Notes under the pieces: model-generated
Databases searched by the model: none
Told to the model about the DNA's origin: nothing
What the model saw: only the letters and a program-made list of their open reading frames with translations
Assembly (NCBI GenBank): GCA_035382085.1
Contig: DAOSZO010000004.1
Coordinates: 9,268-73,267 of the forward strand
Direction of reading: 5' to 3'
DNA length: 64,000 nucleotides
Source: Smithella sp.
Lineage (GTDB): Bacteria > Desulfobacterota > Syntrophia > Syntrophales > Smithellaceae
Made by a program: the position numbers and the translations under genes
Shown: in pieces, positions 44,467 to 61,699 of the stretch
Layout: each line of letters begins with the position of its first letter
How positions within the stretch are numbered: position 1 is the stretch's first letter

Positions 44467-44608
44467 GACCCCCTCCTGTTTGGTTGATGATTGCAAACAA
44501 GCACTCATGCGGAAATTGATTCGATATAGGGAAATTATAGAAAGCCCACCGCGTCCTGTCAATAAAAATGGCCCGGCGGGCGAAGTATTTTTCGGATGGA
44601 ATATTTGT

Positions 44609-44692: not shown

Positions 44693-45934
44693 GTGAAAAA
44701 ACGGATTGTTATCACCGGACTGGGAACGATCAACGCAATGGCCGACAATGTTCCGGACTTTGCTCGGGCATTGCGGGAAGGGCGGTGCGGCATCAGCAGG
44801 ATTGATCTTTTCGACACCACCGGATTCCGTTCGCACACCGGCGGACAGATAAAGCATGTCAGCGCCCGTGGTTACATCCCGCGCGAATTCTCCGTCAAAA
44901 GAATGTCGCGGGCGGACATGCTTTCGTTCGCCGCGGCTCTGGAGGCTTTGCGCGACGCCGGACTTTACCCGCCGCCCGAGGAAGCAAAAGATGAAATCGG
45001 CGTGGTGATCGGCGGAGGTGCCGGCGGCCTTTTGGAAGCGGAGGATTTTTACGGCAGACTGCTGACAACGGGCAGGGGAGTCAAATTTTCAACGCTTTCC
45101 TCTCTCTTTTGCGCTTCTTCCGCCGATCGCATTGCCTCGGCTTTTCATTTCGGGGGTCCCAAAGCGACGTTCATGACCGCCTGCTCCGGCGGCGGTACGG
45201 CGCTGGGCTACGCCCGGGATCTGATTTTGAACGGTCACACATCCCTGGTTCTTGCCGGTGGCGTGGAACCCATGTGCCGGACCACCTTCGCCGCCTTCAA
45301 CGCCCTGAAGTCCGTCGCGGCCGATTTCTGTCGTCCGTTCGACAAAAACCGGGACGGTCTTTCGCTCGGCGAAGCGGCCGCCGTAATGGTGTTGGAGGAA
45401 CTTCAACATGCCCTTGCCCGCGGCGCGAAAATCCACGGAGAGATTCTCGGCTACGGCATCACCTGTGATTCGTATCACATGACCGCCCCCGATGAACAGG
45501 CGTCCGGTGCTGTCCGTTCCATGCAGGCGGCACTGAAGGACAGCGGTCTTTCTCCCGACGACATTGATTACATCAACGCGCACGGCACGGCCACGCCGGT
45601 CAACGACCCGATGGAAACGAAAGCCATCAAGGCAGTGTTCGGGCGGCGCGCCTACACCATTCCGGTGAGTTCCACCAAGTCCATGCACGCGCACACGCTC
45701 GGCGCCGCGGGAGCGCTGGAAGGCATCGTTTCGGTGCTGGCCCTGCGCGACGGCTTGGTCCCGCCGACCATCAACTATCAGGAACCCGACCCCGCCTGCG
45801 ATCTGGATTACGTCACCACCGGCGCGAGACGGGCGACTTTGCGTGCCGTTCTTTCCAATTCGTTCGCCTTCGGCGGCAACAACACGACGGTCATCTTCGG
45901 CAAATATTCCGAAAGGGGTGCGGCCAATGCATGA
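44693..45934 (+). CDS. Beta-ketoacyl synthase (KS-alpha-like, catalytic triad intact)
   Basis: GTG start after GGGAGGG. MTACSGGGTA (Cys), AHGTATPVND (His), HAHTLGAAG (His). Confidence 0.85.
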   Translation: MKKRIVITGLGTINAMADNVPDFARALREGRCGISRIDLFDTTGFRSHTGGQIKHVSARGYIPREFSVKRMSRADMLSFAAALEALRDAGLYPPPEEAKDEIGVVIGGGAGGLLEAEDFYGRLLTTGRGVKFSTLSSLFCASSADRIASAFHFGGPKATFMTACSGGGTALGYARDLILNGHTSLVLAGGVEPMCRTTFAAFNALKSVAADFCRPFDKNRDGLSLGEAAAVMVLEELQHALARGAKIHGEILGYGITCDSYHMTAPDEQASGAVRSMQAALKDSGLSPDDIDYINAHGTATPVNDPMETKAIKAVFGRRAYTIPVSSTKSMHAHTLGAAGALEGIVSVLALRDGLVPPTINYQEPDPACDLDYVTTGARRATLRAVLSNSFAFGGNNTTVIFGKYSERGAANA

Positions 45935-47171
45935 AAATCGCCACAGAGACCCCGCCAGACGCGTCGTGGTGACCGGCATCGGCATGGTCACGCCGCTGGG
46001 AGTGGGCAAGGAGGAATTCGCGGCGAATCTTTTTTCCGGCAAAACCGGCATCGCACCCGTCCGGTCTTTTGACACGACGTCCTTTTCCTCTCATCTGGGC
46101 GCGGAAGTGACCGATTTCCATCCCCGCGACTTTGTCTCCGTCAAGAATCTGCGCCGCATGGACAAAACATCTCTTTTCACGGCCGCCGCCGCACGGCTCG
46201 CGCTGCAGGACGCAGGGCTGGAAATCACGCCGGACAACCGCGACCGCGTCGGCATTGTCCTGGGAACGGCATTCGGCGCGACCGATGTGACCGCCCAGTT
46301 TTCGGGGACCTTGTTGACTCAGGGCCCCGCTTCGGTCAATCCCATCCTGGTGCCCAACATCGTCATGAACGCTCCGGCCGGACACGCCTCCATTGAACTG
46401 GGATTCCGCGGCGTCAACACCACCGTGACGCATTTTGCCGTTTCCGCGGAAACGGCCATCGCCTACGCGGCGGCGGAAATACGGCGCGGCACGGCCGATT
46501 ATCTGCTGGCAGGCGGCGCGGATATCCTGTCGAAATTCTACTATGAGTCGCTGACCAAATTCCGGGCGCTGTCGCCTCAAAACGGTGAAGAAGAGTCGTG
46601 CCGGCCCTTCGATGAGAGGCGCAACGGCACCATCGCCGGAGAAGGCAGCGGTCTTGTGCTGCTGGAGAGCCTCCAATCGGCCCTGGCCAGAGGACGCGCT
46701 CCCTATTGCGAAGTCAAAGGTGCGGGCATGGGTTCGTCGCCCACCCCGCCGACCGCCTGGCCGGCCGAGCCGTCAGGCATCAAAAAAACGCTGCAGCGAG
46801 CGCTGGACAACGCCTCCTTGTCCGCCGGCGACATTCAGGCAATCTTTGCCGTTGCCAACGGCGACAAAATTTTGGATGCAACCGAAGCCCGGGCCTATGA
46901 AGATTTATTTGCCGGCACAAGCCCGGCGCCCTGGATCACGGCCGTCAAAGGCGCCACAGGGGAAAGTTTTTCATCCGGAGGCATCAGAGCCTGCGCGCTG
47001 GCGCTGGCCATGGAAAAAAACAGCCTGCCGCCGTCAGCGGGACTGGCCACTCCCCTTTCGGGACTTTCTTTTGTCCAGGAGCGCAAAGAGATAGACGTCG
47101 CGATGACCCATGCCGCGCTGGCCGGAATTTCCTTCGGCGGAACCTACTGCTACCTGATTTTCGGCAGATAG
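45927..47171 (+). CDS. KS-like chain-length-factor-type partner (active-site Cys and His residues replaced)
   Basis: 8-nt overlap (ATGCATGA) with the KS. The aligned Cys position reads HFAVSAETA (Cys to Ala), and the HGTGT position reads VANGDK. Confidence 0.75.
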   Translation: MHENRHRDPARRVVVTGIGMVTPLGVGKEEFAANLFSGKTGIAPVRSFDTTSFSSHLGAEVTDFHPRDFVSVKNLRRMDKTSLFTAAAARLALQDAGLEITPDNRDRVGIVLGTAFGATDVTAQFSGTLLTQGPASVNPILVPNIVMNAPAGHASIELGFRGVNTTVTHFAVSAETAIAYAAAEIRRGTADYLLAGGADILSKFYYESLTKFRALSPQNGEEESCRPFDERRNGTIAGEGSGLVLLESLQSALARGRAPYCEVKGAGMGSSPTPPTAWPAEPSGIKKTLQRALDNASLSAGDIQAIFAVANGDKILDATEARAYEDLFAGTSPAPWITAVKGATGESFSSGGIRACALALAMEKNSLPPSAGLATPLSGLSFVQERKEIDVAMTHAALAGISFGGTYCYLIFGR

Positions 47172-47430
47172 GTTATTTGCCGTTTGAGCGCGCGGAGGTG
47201 AAAGGCTTCTCCGAAGCGTCCCGGCCGCCTTCCAAAAATTCTTTGTGATTTAAAAAGCCATCCGAGCTTGCGCGGAAATTCAGTTTCCAGCGGATTTCGG
47301 ATGCGAAACGTCCCTGTTCTCCGCTCGTTTCAAATGAAAAGCCAGCAAAAATTTTTTATTGGCGACAGGCGGAAAATGGTGTAAACAACGCCTGTTCTGT
47401 AAACCAGCAAATCGTTGAAAGACTATATCT

Positions 47431-48690
47431 ATGAAATTCAAACTGATTTACCCGAAATGGGAAAAGCTCGACCGTCAGACACCCTTTATCCTGCCGCCGC
47501 ACGGGCCGGTTGTTTTTGCTGCCACGTTGCCCGGCGACGTGCAGGTGCAGTTTACCGATGAAAACATTGAGGACATCGATTTTAACGAGCCTGTGGATTT
47601 TGTCGGTATTTCCGTCATGCTGACCGCGCAGGTCAAACGTGCCTGGGAAATCGCCGACATCTTTCGGGAAAAAGGCGTACAAGTCATCTGCGGCGGCATT
47701 GCCACCATGCTTCACGCCGAAGAGATGCAAAAGCACGCTGACAGTGTTTTTCTCGGCGAAACCGAAGGCCGGATGGAACAGGTCTTCGAGGATTTCAAAA
47801 ACGGCAGGCTCCGGAAAGTTTACGACTACATGCAGAATTTCCCGCCGATTGACAGCGTCGGTTCGGCGCGGCGGTCCATTCTGAACCGCGACGCCTACAA
47901 TTACCGAGGCATTCAGATGGTCGACCTGGTGCACGCCTCCCGCGGCTGCCGCTTCAATTGTTATCCCTGCGCCGTGAGATTTTTGGGCGGGAAAAATTTC
48001 CGTCCCCGGCCCTTCGACAAGGTCATCGAGGAAATGGCCGGCATCGACAACACCCGGCTCTTTTTGGTGGACAATTCGCTGGCGCAGGACAAGCAATGGG
48101 AACTACAGCTTTTCAAAGAAATGATTCCGCTGAAGAAAAACTGGTGCTGCCATCCCATCGAAAAGGACGACGAGGTCCTCGATTTGGCGGCGCGGGCCGG
48201 CGCCTGGTTTGTTTACCAGACCATTTTCGACACGTCCGATTACATCCGCAACCGCGTCAAACGGTATCACGATTTCGGTATCGCCGTGGAAGGCAGCATT
48301 CTCCTGGGTCTGGACTATCACGACGAAAATTACATCAAGAAACTGGTCGATTTTTTGCTGGAGATTGAACTGGATATGGCGGAATTCACGATTTTGACGC
48401 CGTTTCCACACACCAAAACGTTTGATGATCTGCACAGTGCCGGGAGAATCTTTTCCTACGACTGGAATGACTATACCTGCGGAAAGGTCGTTTTCCGGCC
48501 GAAATTGATGACACCGGAAAAATTGCAGGAAATGTATTATTACTGCTGGGATAAATTTTACGAGGAAGAACCTCAAAATTACAAAATGTTCAAACTGCTC
48601 AAAAAAGTCATGGACAAGGAAAAAGCGGACGGCACCTACAGGCCGCGCGTCCGCAAACCGGTACCCCAGGAAAGGACATTCAGGCCATGA
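47431..48690 (+). CDS. B12-binding-domain radical SAM enzyme (class B), copy 1
   Basis: N-terminal Rossmann-like B12 domain (FVGISVMLTAQ...VICGGIATM), CxxxCxxC cluster motif SRGCRFNCYPC. 419 aa. Confidence 0.8.
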   Translation: MKFKLIYPKWEKLDRQTPFILPPHGPVVFAATLPGDVQVQFTDENIEDIDFNEPVDFVGISVMLTAQVKRAWEIADIFREKGVQVICGGIATMLHAEEMQKHADSVFLGETEGRMEQVFEDFKNGRLRKVYDYMQNFPPIDSVGSARRSILNRDAYNYRGIQMVDLVHASRGCRFNCYPCAVRFLGGKNFRPRPFDKVIEEMAGIDNTRLFLVDNSLAQDKQWELQLFKEMIPLKKNWCCHPIEKDDEVLDLAARAGAWFVYQTIFDTSDYIRNRVKRYHDFGIAVEGSILLGLDYHDENYIKKLVDFLLEIELDMAEFTILTPFPHTKTFDDLHSAGRIFSYDWNDYTCGKVVFRPKLMTPEKLQEMYYYCWDKFYEEEPQNYKMFKLLKKVMDKEKADGTYRPRVRKPVPQERTFRP

Positions 48691-50234
48691 GGAAAAACAA
48701 GTCGGCCGTTGTGATTGACGGCAGTCCTGTCTGTTTCGATGATATCATCGCCGCGGCCCGCTATGGCGTTCCCGTGCGCATCAGTGCGACGCACAAATTC
48801 ATCCGGCACATGCACAAGACGCAGAATCACCTGATGAACGCCCTGCGCAAGGGCGTTCCGGTCTACGGCGTGACCACCGGCTACGGAAAATCCTGCGGCA
48901 AACGCATGCCGATGGAGGTGGCGCTCAAAAACGGCGTCAACATTCTGCGCTTCCACGGCTGCGGCACCGGAGAACCCATCGGCATCGAAGAAACTCGGGC
49001 GGCCATGCTCTGCCGCATCATCTGCCTGGCGCGGGGTTACTCCGGCGTCTCCGTTGCGCTGCTTGAAAAACTGGCGGAGTTCCTGAACCACGGCATCACA
49101 CCCGTGGTGCCCGCCGAGGGTTCCGTGGGCGCCTCCGGCGACCTGACGCCCATGTCCTACATCGGCGCCTGCCTGATGGGTGAACGCGAGGTTTTCTACC
49201 AGGGCAAAATCATGCCTGCCGCCGGGGCTTTGAAAAAAGCGGGCGTCAAGCCCTACAGATTTCTTCCGAAAGAACCGCTGGCCATGGTCAACGGCACGTC
49301 CACCATGACAGGCATCGCCGTGCTGGCCGTCGAAAGGGCCTGGCGGATTCTCTCCGCCGCGACTTCCGCCACGGCGCTTTCCATTCACGCCCTGAAAGGC
49401 AACGCAAGACACTACCATCCAGTCATTTCGGAAGCCAAACCTTTTCCCGGCCAGGTCTTTGTCGCCAATCGTCTCTCCCGCCTCCTGAAAGCGAACGTCC
49501 CGGCAAGGCAGCTGGAAGACGACCATCTTGAATCCCTGCAGGATCCTTATTCGCTGCGTTGCGCGCCTCAGGTCGCCGGTGTTTTGTACGATAGCCTGCA
49601 GTGGATAAAAAATTGGGTGGAGACGGAAGCCAACAGCTCCAACGACAATCCCATTTTCGATCCCGCAACCGGCGAAGTGCTGATGGGCGGTAATTTCTAC
49701 GGCGGTCACATCGCCTTCGCCATGGACGGACTCAAGGCGGCGCTGGCCTCATTAGCCGACATGTGCGACCGTCAGATCATGCTCCTGGTCACGCCGAATC
49801 TGAACAGGGGATTGCCCGGCGATCTGGTGCGCAAACCCGGCACGGAAAAAGGCCTCCGCCACGGATTCAAGGCAATGTCCATTGCCTCCTCCGCGCTGGC
49901 CGCGGAAGCGCTCAAGGCCACGATGCCCGCAGCGTCCTTTTCGCGCTCGACGGAATCGCACAATCAGGACAAGGTCAGCATGGGCACCATCGCGGCGCGC
50001 GACGCCGAACGCGTCTGCACCCTGACGGAAAGAGTTGTCGCCATTCATCTTCTGGCGGCGGCCCAGGCGTGCGATATCCGCGGCAACATTGAAGCGCGGC
50101 CCGCCCTCGCGGGGATGATGAAAAAAATCAGGCTGGTTTCAGCGCCCGTGCTGGATGACCGCCCGATGGACGCCGATATTGAGAAACTCCGTGAAGCCAT
50201 CAAATATTCCGATTTTTTTGAGATGAAACCATGA
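48687..50234 (+). CDS. Aromatic amino acid ammonia-lyase (HAL/PAL/TAL family, MIO cofactor)
   Basis: GVTTGYGK and the MIO-forming GSVGASGDLTP (Ala-Ser-Gly). 4-nt overlap with the upstream radical SAM gene. Confidence 0.85.
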   Translation: MRKNKSAVVIDGSPVCFDDIIAAARYGVPVRISATHKFIRHMHKTQNHLMNALRKGVPVYGVTTGYGKSCGKRMPMEVALKNGVNILRFHGCGTGEPIGIEETRAAMLCRIICLARGYSGVSVALLEKLAEFLNHGITPVVPAEGSVGASGDLTPMSYIGACLMGEREVFYQGKIMPAAGALKKAGVKPYRFLPKEPLAMVNGTSTMTGIAVLAVERAWRILSAATSATALSIHALKGNARHYHPVISEAKPFPGQVFVANRLSRLLKANVPARQLEDDHLESLQDPYSLRCAPQVAGVLYDSLQWIKNWVETEANSSNDNPIFDPATGEVLMGGNFYGGHIAFAMDGLKAALASLADMCDRQIMLLVTPNLNRGLPGDLVRKPGTEKGLRHGFKAMSIASSALAAEALKATMPAASFSRSTESHNQDKVSMGTIAARDAERVCTLTERVVAIHLLAAAQACDIRGNIEARPALAGMMKKIRLVSAPVLDDRPMDADIEKLREAIKYSDFFEMKP

Positions 50235-50647
50235 ACGAAAACGCCAGAAGCCACGAAGTGAAAATCCGCGTGCCCTTCTTCGACCTGGACCCGATGCAGA
50301 TTGTCTGGCACGCCAATTACCTGAACTATTTTGAAATCGCGCGCGCGGCGCTTTTCGAAAGCAACGGCATCGACCTCCATACGTTCTTTGAAAAGCAGCA
50401 GCTGATTTTCCCCATCATCAAAACAACCACCAAACACATCCTGCCGCTGCGCCACCGCGATGAAATCGTCTGCAAGGCGACGATTGTGGATGCGCGCGTC
50501 AAGATCGTCGTTGACTTCGAAATCCGCCGCACCGATGACGGCCGAGTATGCACCCGCGGCCGGACCGAACAGGTTACGGTGAAGGTGCCCGAAATGGAAA
50601 CCCTCTTCAGCGTCCCCGAAGAAATCCGCCGCGCCTTTGGTTTTTAA
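50231..50647 (+). CDS. 4-hydroxybenzoyl-CoA-thioesterase-family (hot-dog) acyl-CoA/ACP thioesterase
   Basis: VPFFDLDPMQIVWHANYLNYFE. 138 aa. 4-nt overlap upstream. Confidence 0.75.
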   Translation: MNENARSHEVKIRVPFFDLDPMQIVWHANYLNYFEIARAALFESNGIDLHTFFEKQQLIFPIIKTTTKHILPLRHRDEIVCKATIVDARVKIVVDFEIRRTDDGRVCTRGRTEQVTVKVPEMETLFSVPEEIRRAFGF

Positions 50648-52381
50648 ATGGAAGACGTCCTGAAAAAATCCTTCATCGCCGGCCTCGAAAGGCTCACGGC
50701 CAGGGCGGAGCTGCTGGATTCCATCAATGTCTTTCCCGTCGCCGACGGCGACACGGGAAGGAATCTCTCCGTCAGTCTCTTCCCTCTGCGCAACGTCGGC
50801 CAACCCCGCGAGACGCTCATCCGCCAGCTGCTGATGTCGGCGCGCGGCAACTCGGGCAACATCGCCTCGCAGTTTTTCTCGGCCTTCTGCGCGGTGGAAA
50901 ACGCCGTTGACCTGTCCCGCTGCGCCGCCGCGGGAAAAGAAAAAGCCTGGAAATCGCTCAATAACCCGCGTCCGGGCACCATGTTGAGCGTCTTCGACGC
51001 GCTGGCCGAGGCGCTGCCGCAAACCGAGATCCCGGACCGGCAGGTTATCCGCACCGTCATCGCTTCATTGCAAAAGGCCGTTTATGACACCTACGACCAG
51101 TTGCCGCGCCTGCGGGACGCCGGAGTTGTGGATGCCGGCGCTCTGGGCATGTACATTTTCTTCGAAGGTTTTTTTTACACCTTTGCAGGCATGCCCGACG
51201 CCTGCCGCCCGGTCACGGAGACATTCCGGGATCGTCTGACCATTGCTCCCGCCTTTCGGGAAATCTCGGAATCCGGTTATTGCGTCGATCTGGTGGTCAG
51301 GGCTTCCGGCGATTCAACCGAGAAACTGAAAGCCATCACGTCCGCCCAGGAAGAAGTCATCATCCTGCCCGAAGGCGATCTCTACAAAATTCATCTGCAT
51401 ACCCGCAACAAGGAACAGGTACTGTCGCAAATCGCCGGCGTGGGCAGGGTGCTCCAATGGGAGGATGACAATCTCGCCGCTCAAATCGAGGATTTTCGCA
51501 AAAGCGGAACCGGCTCCCTGCATATCATGACGGACGCGGCCGGATCGCTGACGCTTCAGGACGCCAAACATTACGGCTTTACGCTGCTGAACAGTTATCT
51601 GACGATCGGCGAGAAGTGTCTGCCGGAAACTTTTTTCCGGGCGGAGGAACTCTATCCGGCGATGCATGAAGGAGTCAGGGTGTCGACATCGCAGGCCTCC
51701 GTCTATGAACGGCATCAGTTTTACGAAAGCTCTCTGGAGCGCTTTGAAAAAGTTCTTTATCTTTGCGTGGGTTCGGTTTTCACCGGAAATTACGAAACCG
51801 TCATGCAGTGGAAAAAACAACACGATCCCGAAAACCGCCTGATCGTGCTGGACACCGGCGCGGCCTCCGGCAGACTGGGGCTCATCGTACTGGCCGCGGC
51901 GCGTTGCCTGGCCGAAACAAATGACATGCAAAAGACCGTGATTTATGCTCAAAAGGCCATCAAAACCTGCGAGGAATACGTGTTCCTCGATAAATTACAG
52001 TTTCTGGCGGCAGGCGGCAGACTTTCCAAAACCAGTGCTTTTTTCGGAGACATGCTGCATATGAAACCCGTCATCTCCCCCCAGCCGGAAGGCGCAAAAA
52101 AAGTCGGCGTGGTCAGAAATCAGAAAGATCAGATCAAAATGGCCCTGGAGAAACTCGCCGCCGGCCTGCGAAATAGTTCCCGCGCCCTGATCATGTTGGA
52201 GTACTCCGACAACCGCCAATGGGTGGAGAAAACCGTCCGGCCGATGGTCGTCGAACGCTACCCCGATGCGGAGTTGATCATTCAGCCGCTTTCGCTGACC
52301 TCCGGCGCGCACATGGGTCCGGGAACATGGGCGGTGGCGTTTTTGCCCGACATCACTGCAAATGGTGGGAAAGACCCGTGA
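50648..52381 (+). CDS. Fusion of a Dak2 (DhaL/FakA-N) domain plus FakA-like middle segment with a complete DegV (FakB-type fatty-acid-binding) domain
   Basis: N-terminus: FPVADGDTGRNL, ARGNSGNI, PGTMLSV (Dak2). Middle: GYCVDLVV...YKIHLHT. C-terminus from about aa 290: LHIMTDAAGSL, VSTSQAS, LCVGSVFTGNY, VLDTGAASGRLG, LAAGGRLSK, HMGPGTW (DegV). Confidence 0.75.
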   Translation: MEDVLKKSFIAGLERLTARAELLDSINVFPVADGDTGRNLSVSLFPLRNVGQPRETLIRQLLMSARGNSGNIASQFFSAFCAVENAVDLSRCAAAGKEKAWKSLNNPRPGTMLSVFDALAEALPQTEIPDRQVIRTVIASLQKAVYDTYDQLPRLRDAGVVDAGALGMYIFFEGFFYTFAGMPDACRPVTETFRDRLTIAPAFREISESGYCVDLVVRASGDSTEKLKAITSAQEEVIILPEGDLYKIHLHTRNKEQVLSQIAGVGRVLQWEDDNLAAQIEDFRKSGTGSLHIMTDAAGSLTLQDAKHYGFTLLNSYLTIGEKCLPETFFRAEELYPAMHEGVRVSTSQASVYERHQFYESSLERFEKVLYLCVGSVFTGNYETVMQWKKQHDPENRLIVLDTGAASGRLGLIVLAAARCLAETNDMQKTVIYAQKAIKTCEEYVFLDKLQFLAAGGRLSKTSAFFGDMLHMKPVISPQPEGAKKVGVVRNQKDQIKMALEKLAAGLRNSSRALIMLEYSDNRQWVEKTVRPMVVERYPDAELIIQPLSLTSGAHMGPGTWAVAFLPDITANGGKDP

Positions 52382-53100
52382 CCGCTCCACGCGAGAAAAA
52401 ACGATTCGCTTTCGTGATTCCGCTCTACAATCACGCGGGAACCGTCGCAGGAGTTGTCCGAAAAGCCCAAGCGGCGGGCTATCCGGTTTTTGTGGTGGAC
52501 GACGGCTCCACCGACGGCTCTTGTGACAGAATCAAAGATCTTCAAGGCGTTCAAATCCTGCGACATGAAAAGAACCGGGGAAAGGGCGCGGCCCTGCTCA
52601 CCGGTTTTGCCGCCACCACGGCTGTGGCCGACTGGGCGATCACCCTGGACGCCGACGGACAGCACGACCCCCGCGACGCCGGAAATCTTATCGCCGCCAT
52701 TCCGCAAAACGCACGGCCGATTGTCGTGGGCACGAGAATCTACAGGGCAGGCGAGCGGATTCCCTGGACCAGCAGATTCGGCAGAAAATTTTCCAACTTC
52801 TGGGTGCGCGCCTCCGGAGGTCCCGCTGTTTCCGATTCGCAAAGCGGTTTTCGGATCTATCCCCTGCCCGAGGTTCTGAATCTGAAAACCCGGGCCCGGC
52901 GCTTCGAATTTGAAGTCGAAGTCCTGGTACAGGCCAAAAGAAGCGGCATGCCGGTTACGGAAGCCCCCGTGCGTGTCCATTACAATCCGGAGGGGGGAAG
53001 AATTTCCCACTTCCGTCCTTGTGTGGATTTCCTGCGCAACTCCCTCACCTTCACCCGGCTGATCTTCACGCGCATCTTTCCAACAAAGAAACGTCTATAA
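52378..53100 (+). CDS. Family 2 glycosyltransferase
   Basis: GTG start in a GTGA overlap with the upstream stop. FAFVIPLYNH, VVDDGSTDGS, LDADGQHDP. Confidence 0.8.
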   Translation: MTAPREKKRFAFVIPLYNHAGTVAGVVRKAQAAGYPVFVVDDGSTDGSCDRIKDLQGVQILRHEKNRGKGAALLTGFAATTAVADWAITLDADGQHDPRDAGNLIAAIPQNARPIVVGTRIYRAGERIPWTSRFGRKFSNFWVRASGGPAVSDSQSGFRIYPLPEVLNLKTRARRFEFEVEVLVQAKRSGMPVTEAPVRVHYNPEGGRISHFRPCVDFLRNSLTFTRLIFTRIFPTKKRL

Positions 53101-53210
53101 AAAAATCTTCAGCCCCTCAATCCTCTAATCTTCTATTTTCCACGCGGCTTTTTATCTTGCCACTGCCCGGAAAATGTGGTTTAGAAAATCAGCGATCTTC
53201 ATATAAATTC

Positions 53211-56200
53211 ATGATTTCACGGGTCTTCATATCTTTGCGCAAATATCCGATAAGATGGCCGATTGTTCTGGCGGTCCTCCTGATTATGTCGGCGCTTTTT
53301 ATCTGGGAATCCAGGAATCTGAAAATCGAAACGGATATTCTGGAGTCGCTGCCCCACGACGACCCGGTGCTGGCCGACGCCCGCAAGATTATCAAGCGCC
53401 TGCCGACGCAGGACAAGGTATTCATCAACCTTGAACAGTCCTCACCCGACCGCGACCGACTCATCGCCGCGGCGGAAAGACTCTCTGAAAAGCTCGGCAA
53501 AAGCGGCTTGTTTGCCAAAGTCGGCATCAGCGATGACGCGCAGAGCTTTCCCGAACTCGTCGAGCATGTTCAAGATCATCTGCCGTCGCTGCTTTCCGCC
53601 GACGATCTGGAACACAAGATCGCCCCGCTTTTGACACCGGAAAACATCCGAGAAGCTCTGCGGCAATATCGCCGCTCGCTCGAACAACTCGAAGGAATCG
53701 GCCGCAGCGAAATGACGGCCAAAGACCCTCTGGGTTTTTCCGGCGTCATCTTGAGCCGAATGGCCGCCCTGCTGCCCGCCGGCAAGGCGCAATTTTACAG
53801 GGGACATCTGATTTCCGAAGACGGCAGAAATCTTTTAATCATTGCAACCATCAGGGGTTCGGGAACCGACACGAAAACGGCGGCGCAAATCAACCGGCTT
53901 TTGGAGGATCTGCAGAATCAGCTCGACGCGGAAACCGGTTCCGACTACTGTTTCAGGCTGAGTTCCGCCGGTGCCTACCGGGTCGCCCTGGATAACGAAA
54001 CCATCGCCAAAAAAGACATCCGCCTGGCTATTACGCTGACCACGCTTGGCATCGCTTTGCTGCTCATTGTCGTTTTTCCGCGTCCGCTGGTCGGTCTTGC
54101 GTCGCTTCTGCCTTCCATGGCCGGCGCGATTGCCGCGCTGTTTGTCTGCTCTTTGCTTTTCGACGCCCTGTCGCTTCTGGCCATCGGTTTCGGAGGCGCG
54201 ATCATGGCGTTTACGGTTGACCTCGGCATAACCTACCTGCTCTTTCTCGATCAGCCTCATGCCACCGACGGCCAAAAAGTATCGCGGGAAATCTGGTCGG
54301 CTGAACTGCTCGCCGCCCTGACCACCATCGGCGCTTTTCTCCTTTTACTGGTCAGCGATTTTAAGATCCTTGCGGAAATCGGCGTTTTTTCCGCACTGGG
54401 CGCCCTTTTCGTTCTGCTTTTCGTCCACTGGCTTCTGCCAAGAGCCGTCCCTTCGATGCCGCCGGCAACGCGAGAAACCAACCGCCATCTGAAAAACGCC
54501 GTCAATAAAATCGCCGCGCCGGCGACCTGGAAATGGACGGCCGCTCTGGCCTTCGGCGTTGTGATGCTTTTTTTCGCCAAACCGATTTACAATGTAGATC
54601 TCAACGCCATGAATTCCATGAGCGAAGAAACCATCCGTTTCGGCGAAAAGATGAAAAGCGTGTGGGGGGATTTCTCCGGACAGAGCTATGTTTTTCTGGA
54701 AGCGCAAAATTTGCCCCAGCTGCAGAAGAAAAATGACGCGCTGATGAGCCTCTTGGACGAGGAGGCGCGGCAGGGGAAATTATCCTCCGTCTTTCTGCCT
54801 GCCGTTCTGTTCCCGTCGCCGGAGACGGCCCGCAGTCATTTTGCCGCTTGGCGCGCTTTCTGGAACAGGGAACGCATCGCCACGCTGAAGCGCGACCTCG
54901 ATGCCGCGTCGCGGGAATACGGCTTCAGACCGGAGGCCTTCGCCGCTTTCTGGCAGATCATTCATCAGAAGCAGCCCGCCGTATTCGACATCCCGGAAAA
55001 ATATTTCGAAATGCTGGGCATCGCCAAAGGCCCCTCAGGTTTCACACAGCTGAGCCTCATGTCGCCGGGCCGGTATTACAACGCCGTAGATTTTTTCAAA
55101 AAAATTTCGCAAAGCGGCCTGGCCCGCGCTTTCGACGGGCATTTGTTCAACCGGCGGCTGGGCGATTTTCTCAAATCTCTTTTTCTGGAAATCGCGCTCA
55201 TCACCAGCGTCGGCCTGGCGCTGGTCATCTTGTTGTATTTTCTGGACTGGCAGCTCACGCTGGCCGCGGCCGCGCCGATTGCTTTCGCTCTTGTCGCCAC
55301 GCTCGGCACGCTGAAGCTCATCGGTCATCCGGTGGACATCCCCGGCATCATGCTCTGGGTGGTCATCATGGGCATGGGCATTGATTACGCCATTTACTAC
55401 ATCTGCACCTACCAGCGCCATCCCGACAACCAATCCCCCGCCATGCAGAACATCCGGCTGGCGATTTTTCTGGCGGCCTTTACCACGCTCATTGGTTTCG
55501 GCGTCCTGACCCTGGCCGGCCATGCGCTTCTGCGCAGCATCGGAATGGTATCGCTTCTGGGCATCTTCTATTCGTTCATTGGAAGTTTTCTCATCCTGCC
55601 CGCGCTGATGGAAAAAATATTCGCGCCGGTTCCATTTCCGGCGGAACCACCAACAGCCGGCTCGCGCGAACATTTGCGCCGGACGGCTTTGCGCTACCGG
55701 CATCTGCCCGCCTACCCGCGCATCTTCGCGCGGATGAAAATGATGATTGATCCGATGTTCAGAGAACTGCACCGGTATGTCAAAAATCCACGCCGGATTC
55801 TGGATATCGGCGGCGGCTACGGCGTGCCCGCCGCATGGCTGCTGCAAATTTATCCGCAGGCTTACGTGTTCGGCATTGAACCCGATGAGGAGCGCGTGCT
55901 GATCGCTTCCCGCGTCATCGGCAGTCGCGGCGCCGTCATCGTCGGGCGCGCCCCTGATCTGCCGCAAGTTGAAGGAGACGTTGATTACGTTCTCATGCTG
56001 GACATGCTGCATTTTCTCGACGATCCACAGGCCCGGACAACCCTGCGTCGGATTTACGACAGACTGACCGCCGGCGGAACGCTGGTTTTGCGAACAACGA
56101 TCCCATCGGGCAAACCCAACCCTTGGAGACGCTGGATCGAAGTGATCCGACTGGCCGTCACCCGCACTCCCCATTGTTTCCGATCCGAACGGGACGTTGT

Positions 56201-56297
56201 AGATCTGATGCAAAGGGCCGGCTATGCCGTCGATGTCTTTGCATCGGACTGCCGGGGAATCGAAGAAAAGTGGTTTGTGGGGAAAAAAGCTGATTAG
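53211..56297 (+). CDS. MMPL/RND-superfamily exporter fused to a C-terminal class I SAM-dependent methyltransferase
   Basis: Start moved to ATG 53211 (MISRVFISLRKYP...). Two blocks of multi-helix membrane segments with large loops, typical of MMPL 'predicted exporter' proteins. The last ~215 aa contain ILDIGGGYGVPAAW and LVLRT (methyltransferase motifs I and post-I). Confidence 0.75.
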   Translation: MISRVFISLRKYPIRWPIVLAVLLIMSALFIWESRNLKIETDILESLPHDDPVLADARKIIKRLPTQDKVFINLEQSSPDRDRLIAAAERLSEKLGKSGLFAKVGISDDAQSFPELVEHVQDHLPSLLSADDLEHKIAPLLTPENIREALRQYRRSLEQLEGIGRSEMTAKDPLGFSGVILSRMAALLPAGKAQFYRGHLISEDGRNLLIIATIRGSGTDTKTAAQINRLLEDLQNQLDAETGSDYCFRLSSAGAYRVALDNETIAKKDIRLAITLTTLGIALLLIVVFPRPLVGLASLLPSMAGAIAALFVCSLLFDALSLLAIGFGGAIMAFTVDLGITYLLFLDQPHATDGQKVSREIWSAELLAALTTIGAFLLLLVSDFKILAEIGVFSALGALFVLLFVHWLLPRAVPSMPPATRETNRHLKNAVNKIAAPATWKWTAALAFGVVMLFFAKPIYNVDLNAMNSMSEETIRFGEKMKSVWGDFSGQSYVFLEAQNLPQLQKKNDALMSLLDEEARQGKLSSVFLPAVLFPSPETARSHFAAWRAFWNRERIATLKRDLDAASREYGFRPEAFAAFWQIIHQKQPAVFDIPEKYFEMLGIAKGPSGFTQLSLMSPGRYYNAVDFFKKISQSGLARAFDGHLFNRRLGDFLKSLFLEIALITSVGLALVILLYFLDWQLTLAAAAPIAFALVATLGTLKLIGHPVDIPGIMLWVVIMGMGIDYAIYYICTYQRHPDNQSPAMQNIRLAIFLAAFTTLIGFGVLTLAGHALLRSIGMVSLLGIFYSFIGSFLILPALMEKIFAPVPFPAEPPTAGSREHLRRTALRYRHLPAYPRIFARMKMMIDPMFRELHRYVKNPRRILDIGGGYGVPAAWLLQIYPQAYVFGIEPDEERVLIASRVIGSRGAVIVGRAPDLPQVEGDVDYVLMLDMLHFLDDPQARTTLRRIYDRLTAGGTLVLRTTIPSGKPNPWRRWIEVIRLAVTRTPHCFRSERDVVDLMQRAGYAVDVFASDCRGIEEKWFVGKKAD

Positions 56298-56523: not shown

Positions 56524-57420
56524 TTGAATATGAAAAAACTGCCTTACAAAATATTGCTCTTTCTGTCCCGACGGCTGGGGCTTTGGTTTTTTCGGGTTTT
56601 TGCATGGATTGTCGCCACCGCTTATTTTTTTCTCTTTCCCCTGCGCGTGGCCGACAGCTTCAGGTTTTACCGCGCTTTGTTTCCGGACCGCGGCTTTCTT
56701 TATCATCTGCGGTGCGTCTGGAAGCAGTATCACAAGTTTACCGATGTCTATATTCACCGCTTCATCCGCTTCGATGAAGAAGCCATTGAGTATGTCAGAG
56801 AGGGCTGGGAATATCTGGAAGAGGCGGTAAAAAACAAGACCGGCGCTGTCTTACTGATGTCGCACATCGGCAACTGGGAGCTGGCCGCGCGGACGCTCAA
56901 CAAACAGGGTCTGCCGATCATGCTTTACCTGGGCGCAAAACGCAAAGAACAGATCGAGCGCATCCCCAAGGAGTCGCTGGCCCGCAGGGGCGTCCGTGTG
57001 GTCGTGACGCCGGAAGATGATCAATCGCCCTTCGCCTTGATTGAGGGAATCCATTTCCTGCGCGAGGGCGGCATTGTCTCGATGACCGGCGACCGTCTTT
57101 GGGGCAAGCAAAGTTTTGTTACCGTAAATTTTCTCGGCCATGAAGTAAAACTGCCGGATACGCCGCATCTGTTCGCGCTGATGACCGGCGCGCCGCTGAT
57201 GACTTTTTTTGTCTATCAGGAAAAAATCGGCAAGTATCATATTAAGGTTTCGCCGGGACGAAAAGTGGTTGCCGCCTCCCGCGCCGATAGAAAACGAGCG
57301 CTACAGGAATCCGCTCAGGCCTACGCGAATGACCTCGCGCAGTTTGTGCGCGAGCATCCCCTCGAGTGGCATCACTTCGAACCGTTTCTCGGCAAGAAAC
57401 TCCCCAAAGCGGTTTTGTAA
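56524..57420 (+). CDS. Lysophospholipid acyltransferase, LpxL/HtrB (LPLAT) family
   Basis: N-terminal membrane anchor, LLMSHIGNWELAA (H-x4-E/D motif). 298 aa. Confidence 0.75.
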   Translation: MNMKKLPYKILLFLSRRLGLWFFRVFAWIVATAYFFLFPLRVADSFRFYRALFPDRGFLYHLRCVWKQYHKFTDVYIHRFIRFDEEAIEYVREGWEYLEEAVKNKTGAVLLMSHIGNWELAARTLNKQGLPIMLYLGAKRKEQIERIPKESLARRGVRVVVTPEDDQSPFALIEGIHFLREGGIVSMTGDRLWGKQSFVTVNFLGHEVKLPDTPHLFALMTGAPLMTFFVYQEKIGKYHIKVSPGRKVVAASRADRKRALQESAQAYANDLAQFVREHPLEWHHFEPFLGKKLPKAVL

Positions 57421-57496
57421 ATTTTTCTTTGAGCTTTCGGGGTTTTGTTATATTAAAATGTTCGAAACCGAAGCCTTGGCAAAGAGAAGCTGTCCA

Positions 57497-57967: not shown

Positions 57968-58176
57968 AAGGACCTCACGTCCACTGCGGAATCCGCGGCC
58001 TCATTTGAAAACTGGGCAACAAAAAAAGCTCGGACAGGTTTTGCGCCCCGGTCATGACCGGTCATCGGAAAATATCATGGCCAGCCGCACATTCTTCCCC
58101 CTGAAACAGGAGCGTTCAGCCTCAAGGAAACCTCAATGCTCCGGACTTGTCGGGTTCGAAAAATACGGGCGCGTCG

Positions 58177-59319
58177 TCACACAACCGTCAGCAGAACATA
58201 ACCGACAGAAAAACGGCCGCTCTCCGGAATGAAGCAAAGAATCTTCTGGCCTTCCCTTAATTTGTTAGAATGAAAAAGTTCTTCCAGAATCACGTAAATG
58301 GACGCGGAGCCCGTATTGCCCTTGTAAGTCAGATTGGTAAACCACCGGTCGTAAGGAATTTCAAAGCCTATGCCCTTCATCGCCTGATAGATCTTGTCCC
58401 TGAAAAATTCTGATGAATAATGAGGAAGGTACCAGCTGACTTCCTCGGGCTTCAACTTTCTGCGCTCCGCCGTCCTCGCAAGCCCCAGGGTCACCGTGCA
58501 GCGGACAACCTCCCTGTTGAGGAGTTCCGTATCCTGCTTCAGGGCGAAATAATTTTTGGCTAGCGCCTCTTCCAGCGATTTCAGCTGACGCCAGCCGATG
58601 ATTGTTCCGTCGTCCTGCTTATGCGCGCCGGCATACATGCAGGTTTCCATTTGCCCGGCGTACGACACGATTTCGACCCATTCCACTTTCAGCGATCGGC
58701 CGTTTTCATTTTTCCGGCCGGACATGAAAACGGCGCCTGCGGCATCGGAAAGCATCCAGCGCAGAAAATCCGATTCAAAATTCAGCACCGGGCTGTTCTT
58801 GAAATCGGGGTCACCCTTGAGATGCTCGAAAAAATTCGACCGGATCAGAGAGGAAGCCAGTTCGGAACCCGTGGCGACGGCATTGTCACTCAAGCCCAGG
58901 GCAACATTGGAATAGGCGGCCTTGAAGGCGGTGATGCCGCAAAGGCAAATGCCCGCCGTGGTGATCGCTTCGCAGGCCGGAAGGCCGAGCTCCCCCTGAA
59001 CCATCAGGCCATGCCCCGGCAACAGGACATCCGGCATGGACGTCCCGCAGCAAAGACATTGAATGTCGTTTACCGAAAACCCTTTATGGGGTTTGAGCCT
59101 GCGGATGGCTTCGGCGGCAAGCTGCGCGTTGGTGTAGTTGAGTTCCCCGGTTTGACGATCGATGGCGTAGTAGCGTTTTTGAATGCCGTTGTTTTTGAGA
59201 ATCCTGTTCTTGACGCGCGAAGGAATGTTGTGAATGGTGCCGAGGACCTGTTCGATTTCGTCATTGGTCACCGGCTCGTTCGGCAAGAAAGCGGCGATAT
59301 CGTTGATGTAAACTTCCAT
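58177..59319 (-). CDS. KAS III (FabH)-family condensing enzyme, long form (380 aa)
   Basis: TTAGICLCGITAF (Cys), LPHYSS (His), GNTGSAS (Asn). 13 nt downstream of the radical SAM gene. Confidence 0.75.
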   Translation of the reverse strand: MEVYINDIAAFLPNEPVTNDEIEQVLGTIHNIPSRVKNRILKNNGIQKRYYAIDRQTGELNYTNAQLAAEAIRRLKPHKGFSVNDIQCLCCGTSMPDVLLPGHGLMVQGELGLPACEAITTAGICLCGITAFKAAYSNVALGLSDNAVATGSELASSLIRSNFFEHLKGDPDFKNSPVLNFESDFLRWMLSDAAGAVFMSGRKNENGRSLKVEWVEIVSYAGQMETCMYAGAHKQDDGTIIGWRQLKSLEEALAKNYFALKQDTELLNREVVRCTVTLGLARTAERRKLKPEEVSWYLPHYSSEFFRDKIYQAMKGIGFEIPYDRWFTNLTYKGNTGSASIYVILEELFHSNKLREGQKILCFIPESGRFSVGYVLLTVV

Positions 59320-59332
59320 AAATATCTCTACC

Positions 59333-60661
59333 TCAATTGGGATGATACGGCTGACGGTGCAGTCTTCTCACCAGATCGGCATACGCCTGATAGAATTCCG
59401 CCTCCGGCATTTTTGTCCTGGTCACGGCGTTGGTAAAAGTATAGTAATCCAGGTCGCTGACCACAATGTCCTTTTTCATGCGCTCATACAGGGGCGTTCC
59501 CGGTACCGGTGTCAAAACGGATATGACCGGAATTTGAATGCGACGCGCCAGAATAAAGTCTTCCAGTTTCTTGAAGTCCGGCTCCCCGTATTCCGGCGAG
59601 GCGATAAAATCGCCGACAATCACTATGCCCAGATCGTGCAGGATGTCAATGGCTTTGTCGATGACCTTGCCCTGATATTTTTTATTGTAATCCGCAAGAC
59701 GGTCGTCGTGAAAGTCCTCAAAACCGACAACAACCGCGTACAGGCCTGCCTCTTTCCACTGCCGCATCAGCTCGGGATTTTTCGCAATGGTGTCGGCACG
59801 CACATCGGCGAAGAATTTTTTTCGGATGCCGGCGTTCATGATTCTTTCGCAAAGATCGCGGGCGAGGTCCAAGTTGCCGAACGTATTGGCATCCACCATT
59901 CTGACGAAGGGAACATCGCCCAACAACCCGATGTCCCTGATCACGGCTTGAACGGAATGATTCAGATACTTTCCCCCGGTCATTTCCGGAATGGCGCAGA
60001 AAGAACAGCGGTGGGGACAACCGCAGGCGGTTATGACAAATCCCATCGTCATGCCCAAATGCTCCAGAAAATACTGATCCCGGTAACGGGACACCAAATC
60101 ATAGCGGGGCGGTATCTCATCCATTAAATCCGCCTCGCCGTAATCCCTTTTCCGGTATTGCAGAGGCCTGCCCGGAAAGACTTTGGCAATCCCGGCAATG
60201 CCTTGACCGTCTTGTCCGCGGGCGAGACAATCCATCAGCTCAAGGAAGCTTTGCTTGCCCAAACCCATCACGATGTAGTCAAACCCGACACGGTTGAAAT
60301 AGCCGGGATCATATGTGGCGTGGTTGCCGCCGATAACCACGGTAGCAGTGCCGTTTTCCTTGATTTGCTCGGCCATCCGGATAACCGTATTGGCTTCGCA
60401 GGTCAACGCGGTAAAACCTACGACATCTGGCTGAAATTGATGAAAGGCCATCCCCAACGCGTCTCCGGTTTCGCATTTAAGATCCAGAATCATGACCTCA
60501 TGGTCATGCAACGGACCGGCCAGAACTTCCAAATTAAAGGGTTCCCCCTTAAAAATCCGCCTGAGCGAAGTGATGCCGTAGTTTTCTTCAGGAATGCTTC
60601 TGCCGCAGTTGGGAGGATTGACCAGCAGAATCTTCAGCTTTCTTTTTTTTGCCATTGCCAT
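59333..60661 (-). CDS. B12-binding-domain radical SAM enzyme (class B), copy 2
   Basis: Start set to ATG 60661 (MAMAKKRKLKILLVNPP). VVGFTALTCEA...VVIGGNHAT (B12-like domain), ACGCPHRCSFC (CxxxCxxC). The exact start is uncertain because there is no clear RBS. Confidence 0.75.
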   Translation of the reverse strand: MAMAKKRKLKILLVNPPNCGRSIPEENYGITSLRRIFKGEPFNLEVLAGPLHDHEVMILDLKCETGDALGMAFHQFQPDVVGFTALTCEANTVIRMAEQIKENGTATVVIGGNHATYDPGYFNRVGFDYIVMGLGKQSFLELMDCLARGQDGQGIAGIAKVFPGRPLQYRKRDYGEADLMDEIPPRYDLVSRYRDQYFLEHLGMTMGFVITACGCPHRCSFCAIPEMTGGKYLNHSVQAVIRDIGLLGDVPFVRMVDANTFGNLDLARDLCERIMNAGIRKKFFADVRADTIAKNPELMRQWKEAGLYAVVVGFEDFHDDRLADYNKKYQGKVIDKAIDILHDLGIVIVGDFIASPEYGEPDFKKLEDFILARRIQIPVISVLTPVPGTPLYERMKKDIVVSDLDYYTFTNAVTRTKMPEAEFYQAYADLVRRLHRQPYHPN

Positions 60662-61679: not shown

Positions 61680-61699
61680 ATCAAAGAAAGGATTTTTCA

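Follow-up and report, generated by a model that had tools for sequence, protein, structure and literature searches.

Introduction

Flexirubin and arcuflavin clusters, described from Chitinophaga pinensis (flx/dar), Flavobacterium johnsoniae and Azoarcus BH72 (arc/dar), make an aryl-polyene acid esterified to a dialkylresorcinol (DAR). DarB, a cyclase, makes the dialkylcyclohexanedione/resorcinol half of flexirubins and DarA is the aromatase (PMC3949708). Aryl-polyene (APE) clusters have a core of ketosynthase (KS; apeO/R), acyl carrier protein (ACP; apeE/F), chain-length-factor (CLF; apeC), dehydratase (DH; apeI/P), ketoreductase (KR; apeQ) and transporter (apeM) genes, and the APE lipid model gives an acyltransferase, a family 2 glycosyltransferase (GT2), an MMPL exporter and a thioesterase (TE) roles in lipid assembly and export (bioRxiv 10.1101/2020.12.19.423268). 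Here, we analysed a 64,000-nucleotide stretch of a Smithella sp. genome (contig DAOSZO010000004.1; the window), whose right-hand third carries a related set of genes. We consider it about an even call that this region is a Smithella-type reduced version of a large aryl-polyene/flexirubin-type pigment-lipid cluster family of strictly anaerobic Desulfobacterota, and the clearest new observation is a class B radical S-adenosylmethionine (SAM) gene in place of the aromatase gene darA, slot for slot.

The window shares with flexirubin and arcuflavin clusters a lyase with FlxA motifs, type II KS extension, a thioesterase, a methyltransferase, a lipid acyltransferase, a GT2, an RND/MMPL exporter, DarB, DarG, a BtrH-like DarH and an ABC transporter. 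In contrast to those clusters, DarA is absent and a B12-binding radical SAM gene (rSAM2) takes its slot; cluster ACPs, KRs, DHs and LolA are missing; KS and CLF are FabF-like; an extra, highly conserved B12-binding radical SAM gene (rSAM1) is coupled to the lyase; a FakA-N/DegV kinase fusion (Dak2-DegV) is encoded after the thioesterase; exporter and methyltransferase form a single protein; and the host is a strict anaerobe. With the APE clusters of Escherichia coli CFT073 and Xenorhabdus doucetiae (apeA-R), the window has in common a KS with an inactive partner and the overall plan, in which a pigment lipid for the outer membrane is made and exported, the counterparts being thioesterase ApeK, acyltransferase ApeD, GT2 ApeJ, exporter ApeM and methyltransferase ApeB. 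However, the two ACPs, DH pair and KR of the APE core are missing, the CLF is not of the ApeC type (PF13723), an ammonia-lyase is predicted to supply the starter in place of 4-hydroxybenzoate and an AMP-ligase, and the window additionally encodes radical SAM enzymes and a kinase.

Three further systems bear on individual genes. The putative ladderane Cluster I of anammox bacteria contains amxACP, amxFabZ, amxFabF2/amxFabFmut, a phytoene-desaturase homolog and a B12-binding radical SAM gene (10.64898/2026.05.19.726425). Like the window, it places a FabF-derived KS and a dead FabF-like partner beside a cobalamin radical SAM gene, whereas Cluster I lacks counterparts of the lyase, TE, kinase, GT2, MMPL and dar genes, and rSAM1 does not belong to the ladderane-type radical SAM family. 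With the FakA/FakB system of Firmicutes, Dak2-DegV shares a Dak2 domain with DGDTG, the FakA middle domain and a DegV/FakB domain, but all in one chain, with DegV in place of the FakA C-terminal domain and the gene lying 3' of a thioesterase in a pigment-lipid cluster of a diderm anaerobe. HpnR, BchE, MgmA and CysS resemble rSAM1 and rSAM2 in their N-terminal B12 Rossmann domain and CxxxCxxC core, yet neither window protein reaches the cut-off of any curated class B family, and a DAR/aryl-acyl lipid context is undescribed for such enzymes. In the library of papers searched, we found none describing this gene combination, nor any that connects radical SAM enzymes or DegV with aryl polyenes or dialkylresorcinols. 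Genome mining with antiSMASH has reported 'ladderane' clusters, their function unknown, from Desulfobacterota (PMC9902471).

Results

Gene order is conserved across anaerobic Desulfobacterota

A survey based on Dak2-DegV fetched 80 loci, with which the window proteins were compared by tblastn. The closest matches come from metagenome-assembled genomes of Smithella and other Smithellaceae (Syntrophales, Desulfobacterota), at up to 76% identity for Dak2-DegV. We observe the order KS-CLF-(acyl-CoA ligase ± acyl-CoA dehydrogenase)-rSAM1-ammonia-lyase-TE-Dak2/DegV-GT2-MMPL::methyltransferase-acyltransferase-DarG-DarH (one to three copies)-ABC transporter in about 70 species-level genomes of Smithellaceae, so the association of these genes goes beyond chance. 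Syntrophus-type clusters keep a longer version, KS-CLF-ligase-FabG-LolA-rSAM1-ammonia-lyase-TE-Dak2/DegV-GT2-MMPL::methyltransferase-acyltransferase.

When an rSAM1 ortholog of Desulfobacteraceae served as the seed of a second scan, a further 80 loci were obtained, belonging to Desulfobacterales, Desulfosarcina, Desulfobulbus, Desulfocapsa, Syntrophus, Spirochaetota and Leptospirales, with rSAM1 proteins 66-72% identical to that of the window and 72-87% to the seed. The rSAM1 gene lies 3' of FabG and a LolA-like gene in 59 of these 80 loci, and its neighbours include ACPs, a FabA-like dehydratase and an APE-type KS::PF13723 fusion (L070, a relative from Desulfobacteraceae, shows PF13723); further radical SAM genes and a TE-Dak2/DegV-GT2-acyltransferase-KS-PlsC block are also nearby. 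The first-pass annotation had listed rSAM1 and Dak2-DegV as non-canonical additions to a known kind of cluster; because synteny holds across the family, we reject local insertion and regard both as conserved core genes of an anaerobe cluster family, of which the window is a reduced member.

Several variants depart from this arrangement. Two Desulfobacterales loci (L209, 247-12970; L200, 860-12815) have as many as five radical SAM genes, of which three encode a B12 domain and two are shorter with weak matches, together with two ACPs and a FabA/ApeI-like dehydratase, a radical SAM content denser than that of the window. A Spirochaetota locus (L080, 5466-10994) consists of ammonia-lyase-UPF0158-Dak2/DegV-GT2-acyltransferase only, lacking KS, thioesterase, rSAM1 and exporter; this minimal module hints that the lyase product itself might be the substrate of the kinase and acyltransferase. 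An acyl-CoA dehydrogenase gene (acryloyl-CoA reductase/cyclohexanecarboxyl-CoA dehydrogenase-like), absent from the window, gives matches in 29 Dak2-DegV loci (L018-L072), as in L029 (5462-6604), where it sits between the acyl-CoA ligase and rSAM1; its product could act on the starter, either introducing or reducing the side-chain double bond.

A class B radical SAM gene in the DarA position

A KAS III had been listed among the non-canonical additions to the locus. Upon scanning with NCBIfam, we find that it belongs to the StlD/DarB family (NF005293; 533 bits, cut-off 450), which is canonical for flexirubin clusters; on the DarB exception model it scores 438 bits (cut-off 550). By family, DarB is predicted to form a 2,5-dialkylcyclohexane-1,3-dione or dialkylresorcinol. 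The rSAM2 gene ends about 13 nt 5' of darB in the same operon. Its product exceeds the Pfam cut-offs for both B12-binding and Radical_SAM, as befits a class B enzyme, with HpnR (150.8 bits) and BchE (98.9 bits) as its nearest families, both far under their cut-offs, and 57.2 bits on the ladderane-type model TIGR04072 (cut-off 360).

When surveying darB, we found homologs in 39 loci. An rSAM2 ortholog lies directly 5' of darB, again at about 13 nt, in 33 of them, all Desulfobacterota. In four proteobacterial loci, from aerobes, the same slot holds a 306-aa flavodoxin-like protein, DarA, identified through its public source names ('dialkylresorcinol condensing enzyme'); an NCBIfam search for a DarA model gave no match. 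By tblastn, no DarA homolog was present in the window or in any fetched Desulfobacterota locus. rSAM2 may carry out an anaerobic aromatisation or a C-methylation of the ring. In other Smithellaceae the rSAM2-darB pair lies far from the main cluster (in OY820932 at 3.46 Mb, the main cluster being at 1.65 Mb). In several Desulfobacteraceae and related loci it adjoins DarG, DarH, an ABC transporter and a KS; a Desulfosarcina locus (L193) has an ACP and a CLF-like gene there as well.

Further genes of the flexirubin type follow beyond 60661, where the region had been thought to end: DarG, a frameshifted DarH, an ABC ATPase and an ABC-2 permease. DarG scores 140.6 bits on NF053536 (cut-off 70), with orthologs 62-79% identical. 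The 3' ORF of DarH reaches 294 bits on NF053550 (cut-off 300), and its intact ortholog in the related locus L002 (76% identity) 405.5 bits. Ten consecutive G (61945-61954), a run that the L002 ortholog lacks, disrupt the darH reading frame; this run could be a homopolymer sequencing error, the mark of a pseudogene or a slipped-strand phase-variation tract. A second, partial copy at 57563-57967 matches residues 213-339 of intact DarH (tblastn). Relatives have one to three DarH copies, two to three intact DarG-DarH pairs being seen, and keep the ABC ATPase 3' of DarH.

Gene organization of the locus

Genes were called from an open reading frame (ORF) listing together with Pfam and NCBIfam scans of the window proteins, as follows.

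44693-45934, plus strand: FabF-type KS; Pfam ketoacyl-synt N- and C-terminal domains
45927-47171, plus strand: KS-like partner (CLF-like), from ATG 45927, overlapping the KS gene by 8 nt; PF00109 and PF02801
47431-48690, plus strand: rSAM1, divergent B12-binding-domain radical SAM protein; CxxxCxxC motif, both Pfam scores below cut-off
48687-50234, plus strand: aromatic ammonia-lyase of the methylideneimidazolone (MIO) type; Lyase_aromatic 522 bits, ASG motif, 4-nt overlap with rSAM1
50231-50647, plus strand: 4HBT (YbgC/FadM-like) thioesterase; Pfam 4HBT_2 and 4HBT, 4-nt overlap with the lyase
50648-52381, plus strand: Dak2, FakA_M and DegV fusion (Pfam), abutting the thioesterase
52378-53100, plus strand: GT2 glycosyltransferase, polyprenyl-phosphate sugar transferase-like; Pfam Glycos_transf_2, GTG start within a GTGA overlap with the Dak2-DegV stop
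53019-56297, plus strand: MMPL/RND (HpnN-like) exporter fused to a class I SAM methyltransferase; Pfam MMPL and Methyltransf_23/25/11
56524-57420, plus strand: LpxL/HtrB/PatA-type lipid acyltransferase (LPLAT); Pfam Lip_A_acyltrans, 75 bits
57563-57967, plus strand: C-terminal remnant of a second DarH copy; positions 60-173 of the DUF4872 profile only
58177-59319, minus strand: DarB/StlD-family ketosynthase; NCBIfam NF005293
59333-60661, minus strand: rSAM2, class B (B12-binding) radical SAM protein; Pfam B12-binding 57.6 bits, Radical_SAM 56.3 bits
61275-61679, plus strand: DarG-family dialkylresorcinol biosynthesis protein; NCBIfam NF053536
61700-62739, plus strand: DarH, BtrH-related acyltransferase, frameshifted; NF053550
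62736-63479, plus strand: ABC transporter ATPase (DrrA-like); Pfam ABC_tran, NCBIfam drrA subfamily 188.8 bits, below cut-off
63517-64000, plus strand: ABC-2 permease cut by the window end; tblastn 71% identity to the ABC2_membrane protein of the relative L016

Between 44693 and 60661 the Pfam and NCBIfam scans return the gene set, boundaries and overlaps of the first-pass annotation almost gene for gene, and inspection of motifs and codons agrees with it on the overlaps, on the MIO motif and on a KS partner without the catalytic Cys. The tight coupling it had described from rSAM1 to GT2 is likewise present, start and stop codons overlapping or abutting throughout, and the class B radical SAM gene does lie directly 5' of the ammonia-lyase gene, overlapping it by 4 nt. 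The MMPL exporter and the methyltransferase had been read as two genes; both families are there, in one fused ORF of 1092 codons, and the fusion is kept at about 1020 aa in relatives. The start of this gene is probably ATG 53211, and that of rSAM2 probably ATG 60661, though the ORF runs to 60805.

An Rfam scan of the whole window gave no match at threshold. A promoter scan returned a single weak promoter-like site 5' of the KS gene, and terminator-like sites occur at chance frequency and are hence uninformative. Two long ORFs lacking family matches were rejected as antisense artefacts: one of 687 codons (42424-44487, plus strand), where the real genes lie on the minus strand, and one of 150 codons opposite darG (61269-61721, minus strand); such spurious ORFs exemplify the artefacts of a GC-rich stretch.

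The ammonia-lyase resembles FlxA

The best NCBIfam match of the lyase is the BagA/FevW tyrosine ammonia-lyase model; on the FlxA equivalog model it scores 301 bits (cut-off 700) and on hutH 429 bits (cut-off 539), and its top sequence match in the Protein Data Bank (PDB) is annotated as a 'probable histidine ammonia-lyase'. Upon closer examination of the motifs, 'RFH' aligns with 'RSH' of SgTAM, and 'HNQD' stands where histidases (histidine ammonia-lyases, HAL) show 'NQED', Gln replacing the HAL Glu. According to Schöner et al., histidases are recognised by Glu at motif 2 and tyrosine and phenylalanine ammonia-lyases by Gln, while FlxA, the experimentally proven tyrosine ammonia-lyase of flexirubin synthesis, has Gln in its second motif and a first motif like that of HAL (PMC3992019). 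The window lyase shows the FlxA pattern, motif 1 containing His and motif 2 Gln, and both motifs are invariant across 77 orthologs, one of which is a Halofilum gene about 4-6 kb from a canonical DarA-DarB-DarG-DarH set. Judging by these residues, the enzyme is probably a FlxA-like tyrosine (or tyrosine/phenylalanine) ammonia-lyase, and it might conceivably act as an aminomutase. No hut genes occur among the genes annotated at 21.9-64 kb. A plain histidase with hut neighbours, which would have told against the cluster as first proposed, is therefore not what we find: the hutH score stays under its cut-off and Gln stands for Glu.

KS and its Cys-less partner

We observe an intact Cys-His-His catalytic triad in the KS, which scores 418 bits on the NCBIfam FabF subfamily PRK07314 (cut-off 387) and matches FabF (337 bits) and 9s5h_B (321 bits) in the PDB. 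The CLF has the FabF fold over its full length, with the catalytic Cys replaced by Ala and both His lost. A KS side by side with a Cys-less partner, as in APE clusters, here with an 8-nt overlap, was thus read correctly at the outset. Among solved structures the CLF is closest in sequence to 9s5h_C (231 bits; canonical FabFs reach at most 206 bits), a partner chain of a heterodimer with Val in place of the catalytic Cys. From its residues, 9s5h is inferred to be the anammox amxFabF2/amxFabFmut heterodimer of a 2026 preprint (10.64898/2026.05.19.726425), whose text does not give the PDB code.

Thioesterase, kinase fusion and lipid-assembly genes

The Dak2-DegV protein carries Dak2 (68.9 bits), FakA-like_M (29.9 bits) and DegV (144 bits) domains, all above the Pfam cut-offs, and the DGDTG motif in its FakA N-terminal kinase domain. 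It scores 158.7 bits on the NCBIfam DegV domain (cut-off 99.7) and 105 bits on the FakA equivalog (cut-off 975), and its PDB matches are FakA N-domains and DegV/FakB structures. An exhaustive search gave homologs in 348 clusters (50% identity) at E <= 1e-30; because more than 100 of these align over the full length, we treat the fusion as a family of its own. Where the block encodes a thioesterase, its gene is always immediately 5' of Dak2-DegV in relatives, an adjacency that suggests that the thioesterase frees an acid which the kinase re-activates as acyl-phosphate. The acyltransferase co-occurs with Dak2-DegV in all variants, those of Spirochaetota included. Taken together, the MMPL/RND exporter, acyltransferase, GT2 and 4HBT thioesterase of APE clusters are all detected by Pfam, with their order kept in relatives.

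rSAM1 is the most conserved protein of the family

The radical SAM motif of rSAM1 reads GCRFNCYPC, and its Pfam scores for B12-binding (28.8 bits) and Radical_SAM (20.8 bits) both fall under the cut-offs; we count it as class B by this motif and its Rossmann domain. Orthologs are 66-87% identical across Desulfobacterota and Spirochaetota, which makes it the most conserved protein of the cluster family, and its more than 6000 homologs bear generic names only. It reaches 48.9 bits on the ladderane-type radical SAM model TIGR04072 (cut-off 360). A PDB sequence search with rSAM1 gave no match. The AlphaFold model, built on a shallow alignment (mean confidence, pLDDT, 64), is confident only in the N-terminal B12 Rossmann domain; its fold matches are the cobalamin methylases MgmA and CysS as well as MiaB, at a structural similarity (TM) of about 0.43, a weak lead.

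Missing functions and flanking genes

As first reported, no ACP, KR, DH or adenylating gene lies beside the KS/CLF pair (44.7-60.8 kb), and the gaps hold no ACP-sized ORF. An AMP-binding gene such as a FlxY-type 4-coumarate-CoA ligase is absent from 44.7-64 kb, OleC being the sole one in the window. The lack of an adenylating enzyme and of a KR had been listed as a difference from the known model; the absence stands, and we read it as lineage-specific loss, with the acyl-CoA ligase missing from the clade of the window but retained in more distant Smithellaceae and FabG and LolA as well in Syntrophus-type clusters. Acyl-CoA ligase matches occur in 36 of the 80 Dak2-DegV loci, typically between CLF and rSAM1, and FabG, ACP and a FabA-like DH are present in the Desulfobacterales and Syntrophus versions.

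The nearest ACP, FabG and FabZ belong, as previously stated, to an ole-linked set at 27.4-38.2 kb. This cassette (27395-38204, minus strand) reads FabF-ACP-CrtI-like-OleA-OleB-OleC-OleD-CrtI-like-FabG-FabZ-FabI, the CrtI-like proteins being oxidoreductases. It resembles the 'anaerobic PUFA/polyunsaturated hydrocarbon' (PUFA, polyunsaturated fatty acid) type discussed for Desulfotalea psychrophila (PMC2649909). With its CrtI-like, ACP and FabZ genes it recalls anammox Cluster I, yet it is an independent CrtI/ole unit, found apart from any KS/CLF cluster in Bacteriovoracaceae, Dehalococcoidia, Planctomycetota and Nitrospinota (FabF 62-70% identical). Its FabF-ACP-FabG-FabZ genes are not supported as a dedicated supplier of ACP, KR and DH, since the cassette is independent and adjoins the KS only in a Smithella subclade; supply from it in trans is a guess.

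Between the ole cassette and the KS lies a c-di-GMP block (38966-43542) with GGDEF (38966-39973), PilZ (41798-42352) and response regulator plus HD-GYP (42466-43542) genes and, within it, a CarH/MtgC-like B12-binding protein (39925-41022); PilZ and HD-GYP keep their position in several Smithella relatives. An alpha/beta hydrolase gene follows (43648-44562, minus strand; Hydrolase_4, weakly lysophospholipase L2-like), divergent from the KS, with a sigma-70-like site of perfect consensus beside it (44562-44534). The response regulator/HD-GYP and hydrolase genes, both 5' of the KS, are on the minus strand, and the hydrolase was rejected as a cluster member, not being kept beside the cluster in relatives. 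The left part of the window (1-21800) contains a 1407-codon ORF (12249-16472, minus strand), and GC is lower (0.45-0.53) at 10-22 kb.

Discussion

Assignment of the locus and points that weigh against it

The aryl-polyene/flexirubin kind, to which the first-pass annotation had assigned the locus, is the one indicated by the KS/CLF pair, the FlxA-like lyase, TE, GT2, MMPL, methyltransferase and acyltransferase, and also by DarB, DarG and DarH, which pass or nearly pass curated models. We therefore describe the locus as a probable variant of the APE/flexirubin family, in which the chemistries of both radical SAM enzymes and the role of the kinase fusion are predictions.

Several observations weigh against this assignment. 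The lyase occurs in only 5 of the 80 rSAM1-seeded loci and is missing from the Desulfobacterales versions, so an aryl starter is not family-wide. ACP, KR and DH genes are found neither at 44.7-64 kb nor in Smithellaceae relatives, departing from the APE core, and because the cluster encodes none of them a polyene rather than a saturated chain is not assured. Furthermore, Pfam gives only PF00109 and PF02801 for the CLF and not PF13723 (Ketoacyl-synt_2, ApeC-type), KS and CLF are FabF-like and nearest to the anammox-type heterodimer 9s5h, not to ApeO/ApeC, and no flexirubin-specific NCBIfam match was obtained for KS, CLF, TE, GT2, MMPL or acyltransferase. The copy in the window is decayed (DarH frameshifted, second DarH truncated, ligase, FabG and LolA missing), which makes function in this genome less certain than for the family. 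Additionally, a methylase assignment for rSAM1 is weak because the structure model is poor, and no product is known from organisms bearing the cluster.

A proposed pathway

The pathway we propose is based on gene content, family membership and synteny, every chemical step in it being inferred. The FlxA-like lyase would convert tyrosine to 4-coumarate. Related genomes would activate the acid by their acyl-CoA ligase; since the ligase gene is lost in the window, activation must come from elsewhere here, possibly from the kinase. The KS and its Cys-less partner would then extend the starter on an ACP acting in trans, with ketoreduction and dehydration also supplied in trans, the product being a polyenoic acid with an omega-(4-hydroxyphenyl) group or its partly saturated counterpart. 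rSAM1 might modify the aryl or acyl intermediate by radical chemistry that needs no oxygen, C-methylation with cobalamin being the likeliest reaction. The 4HBT thioesterase would free the acid and the FakA-N/FakB kinase convert it to an acyl-phosphate for glycerolipid assembly, after which the LpxL-type acyltransferase and the GT2 may make a glycolipid anchor and the MMPL::methyltransferase protein may methylate and export the product. In a parallel branch, DarB would join two fatty-acyl intermediates to a dialkylcyclohexanedione, and rSAM2, replacing DarA, would aromatise the ring independently of oxygen or C-methylate it. DarG and DarH, a BtrH-type acyl-ACP acyltransferase, may couple the aryl-acyl chain to the DarB-derived head group, the coupled product being handled by the ABC-2 pump. 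The C-methylated scaffold joined to a recycled fatty acid, predicted at the outset, remains plausible. A bolder proposition, that anaerobes rebuilt the flexirubin/aryl-polyene route with rSAM2 replacing DarA, rSAM1 adding a new modification and TE plus kinase forming an acyl-phosphate route, is tentative and rather doubtful.

Alternative explanations

The locus could instead be a specialised 'ladderane-like' fatty-acid cluster, in which a FabF/FabF-mut heterodimer starts a dedicated acyl chain, the B12-binding radical SAM enzyme remodels this aliphatic chain (methyl branching, cyclisation or C-C coupling), TE, kinase, acyltransferase, GT2 and MMPL place the unusual chain in membrane glycerolipids, and the lyase is a lineage-specific add-on. 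We consider this unlikely, although it is kept alive by the match of the CLF to 9s5h: within the PDB the CLF comes closest to the Cys-less chain of this heterodimer, in agreement with amxFabF2/amxFabFmut, and anammox Cluster I likewise unites FabF2, FabFmut and a B12-binding radical SAM gene (10.64898/2026.05.19.726425). The Desulfobacterales relatives with up to five radical SAM genes, usually lacking the lyase, and the 'ladderane' clusters reported from Desulfobacterota (PMC9902471) are in line with it too. However, rSAM1 reaches only 48.9 of the 360 bits that TIGR04072 demands, KS::PF13723 fusions of the APE type and a LolA2-like protein of the flexirubin type are present in the Desulfobacterales versions, Syntrophales show translational coupling of the lyase to rSAM1 and have DarG and DarH after the cluster, and the anammox origin of 9s5h is deduced from residues and unstated in the preprint text.

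A mosaic of independent neighbouring modules that share no common product appears quite improbable. It would comprise a lipid recycling/glycolipid module, in which TE, Dak2-DegV, GT2, MMPL::methyltransferase and LPLAT scavenge free fatty acids, a KS/CLF-rSAM1-lyase module and a dar module acquired separately. The unlinked rSAM2-DarB pair of other Smithellaceae (OY820932: 3.46 Mb vs 1.65 Mb), the Spirochaetota locus with ammonia-lyase-UPF0158-Dak2/DegV-GT2-LPLAT only and the different block arrangement in Desulfobacterales speak for modules of this sort; against them stand the overlapping or abutting start and stop codons from rSAM1 to GT2, the recurrence of the same blocks within 20 kb, in several orders, in most of about 150 loci, and the DarG-DarH-ABC set directly 3' of LPLAT in Smithellaceae. 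It is scarcely credible that the lyase simply serves histidine catabolism as a histidase and that the other genes belong to ordinary fatty-acid metabolism. The hutH score of 429 bits is near that of the best match and the top PDB match bears a histidase name, but that score is under the cut-off of 539, Gln replaces the HAL Glu (PMC3992019), hut genes are lacking among those annotated at 21.9-64 kb, and the gene is in conserved synteny with KS/CLF, rSAM1 and TE; we rule out a histidase on the hutH score and this residue.

Implications for the cluster family

The cluster family, which we favour as an anaerobic form of aryl-polyene/flexirubin clusters, extends over well over 150 species-level genomes of Desulfobacterota and some Spirochaetota, and anaerobic versions of such clusters are unstudied. 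Three of its enzymes are of particular interest: rSAM2 in the DarA slot, rSAM1 at about 70% identity across orders, and the kinase fusion after the thioesterase. If the proposed roles are true, aromatisation of a cyclohexanedione to a resorcinol, or C-methylation of the ring, by rSAM2 would be new for class B radical SAM enzymes, rSAM1 would modify an aryl-ketoacyl chain, bound to a carrier or a lipid, by a new radical reaction, and the thioesterase with the FakA/FakB kinase would constitute a new route that brings a polyketide-type acid into phospholipid or glycolipid via an acyl-phosphate. The family may also explain some of the 'ladderane' and 'arylpolyene' genome-mining matches from anoxic habitats, and its products could act as lipid biomarkers for syntrophs and sulfate reducers.

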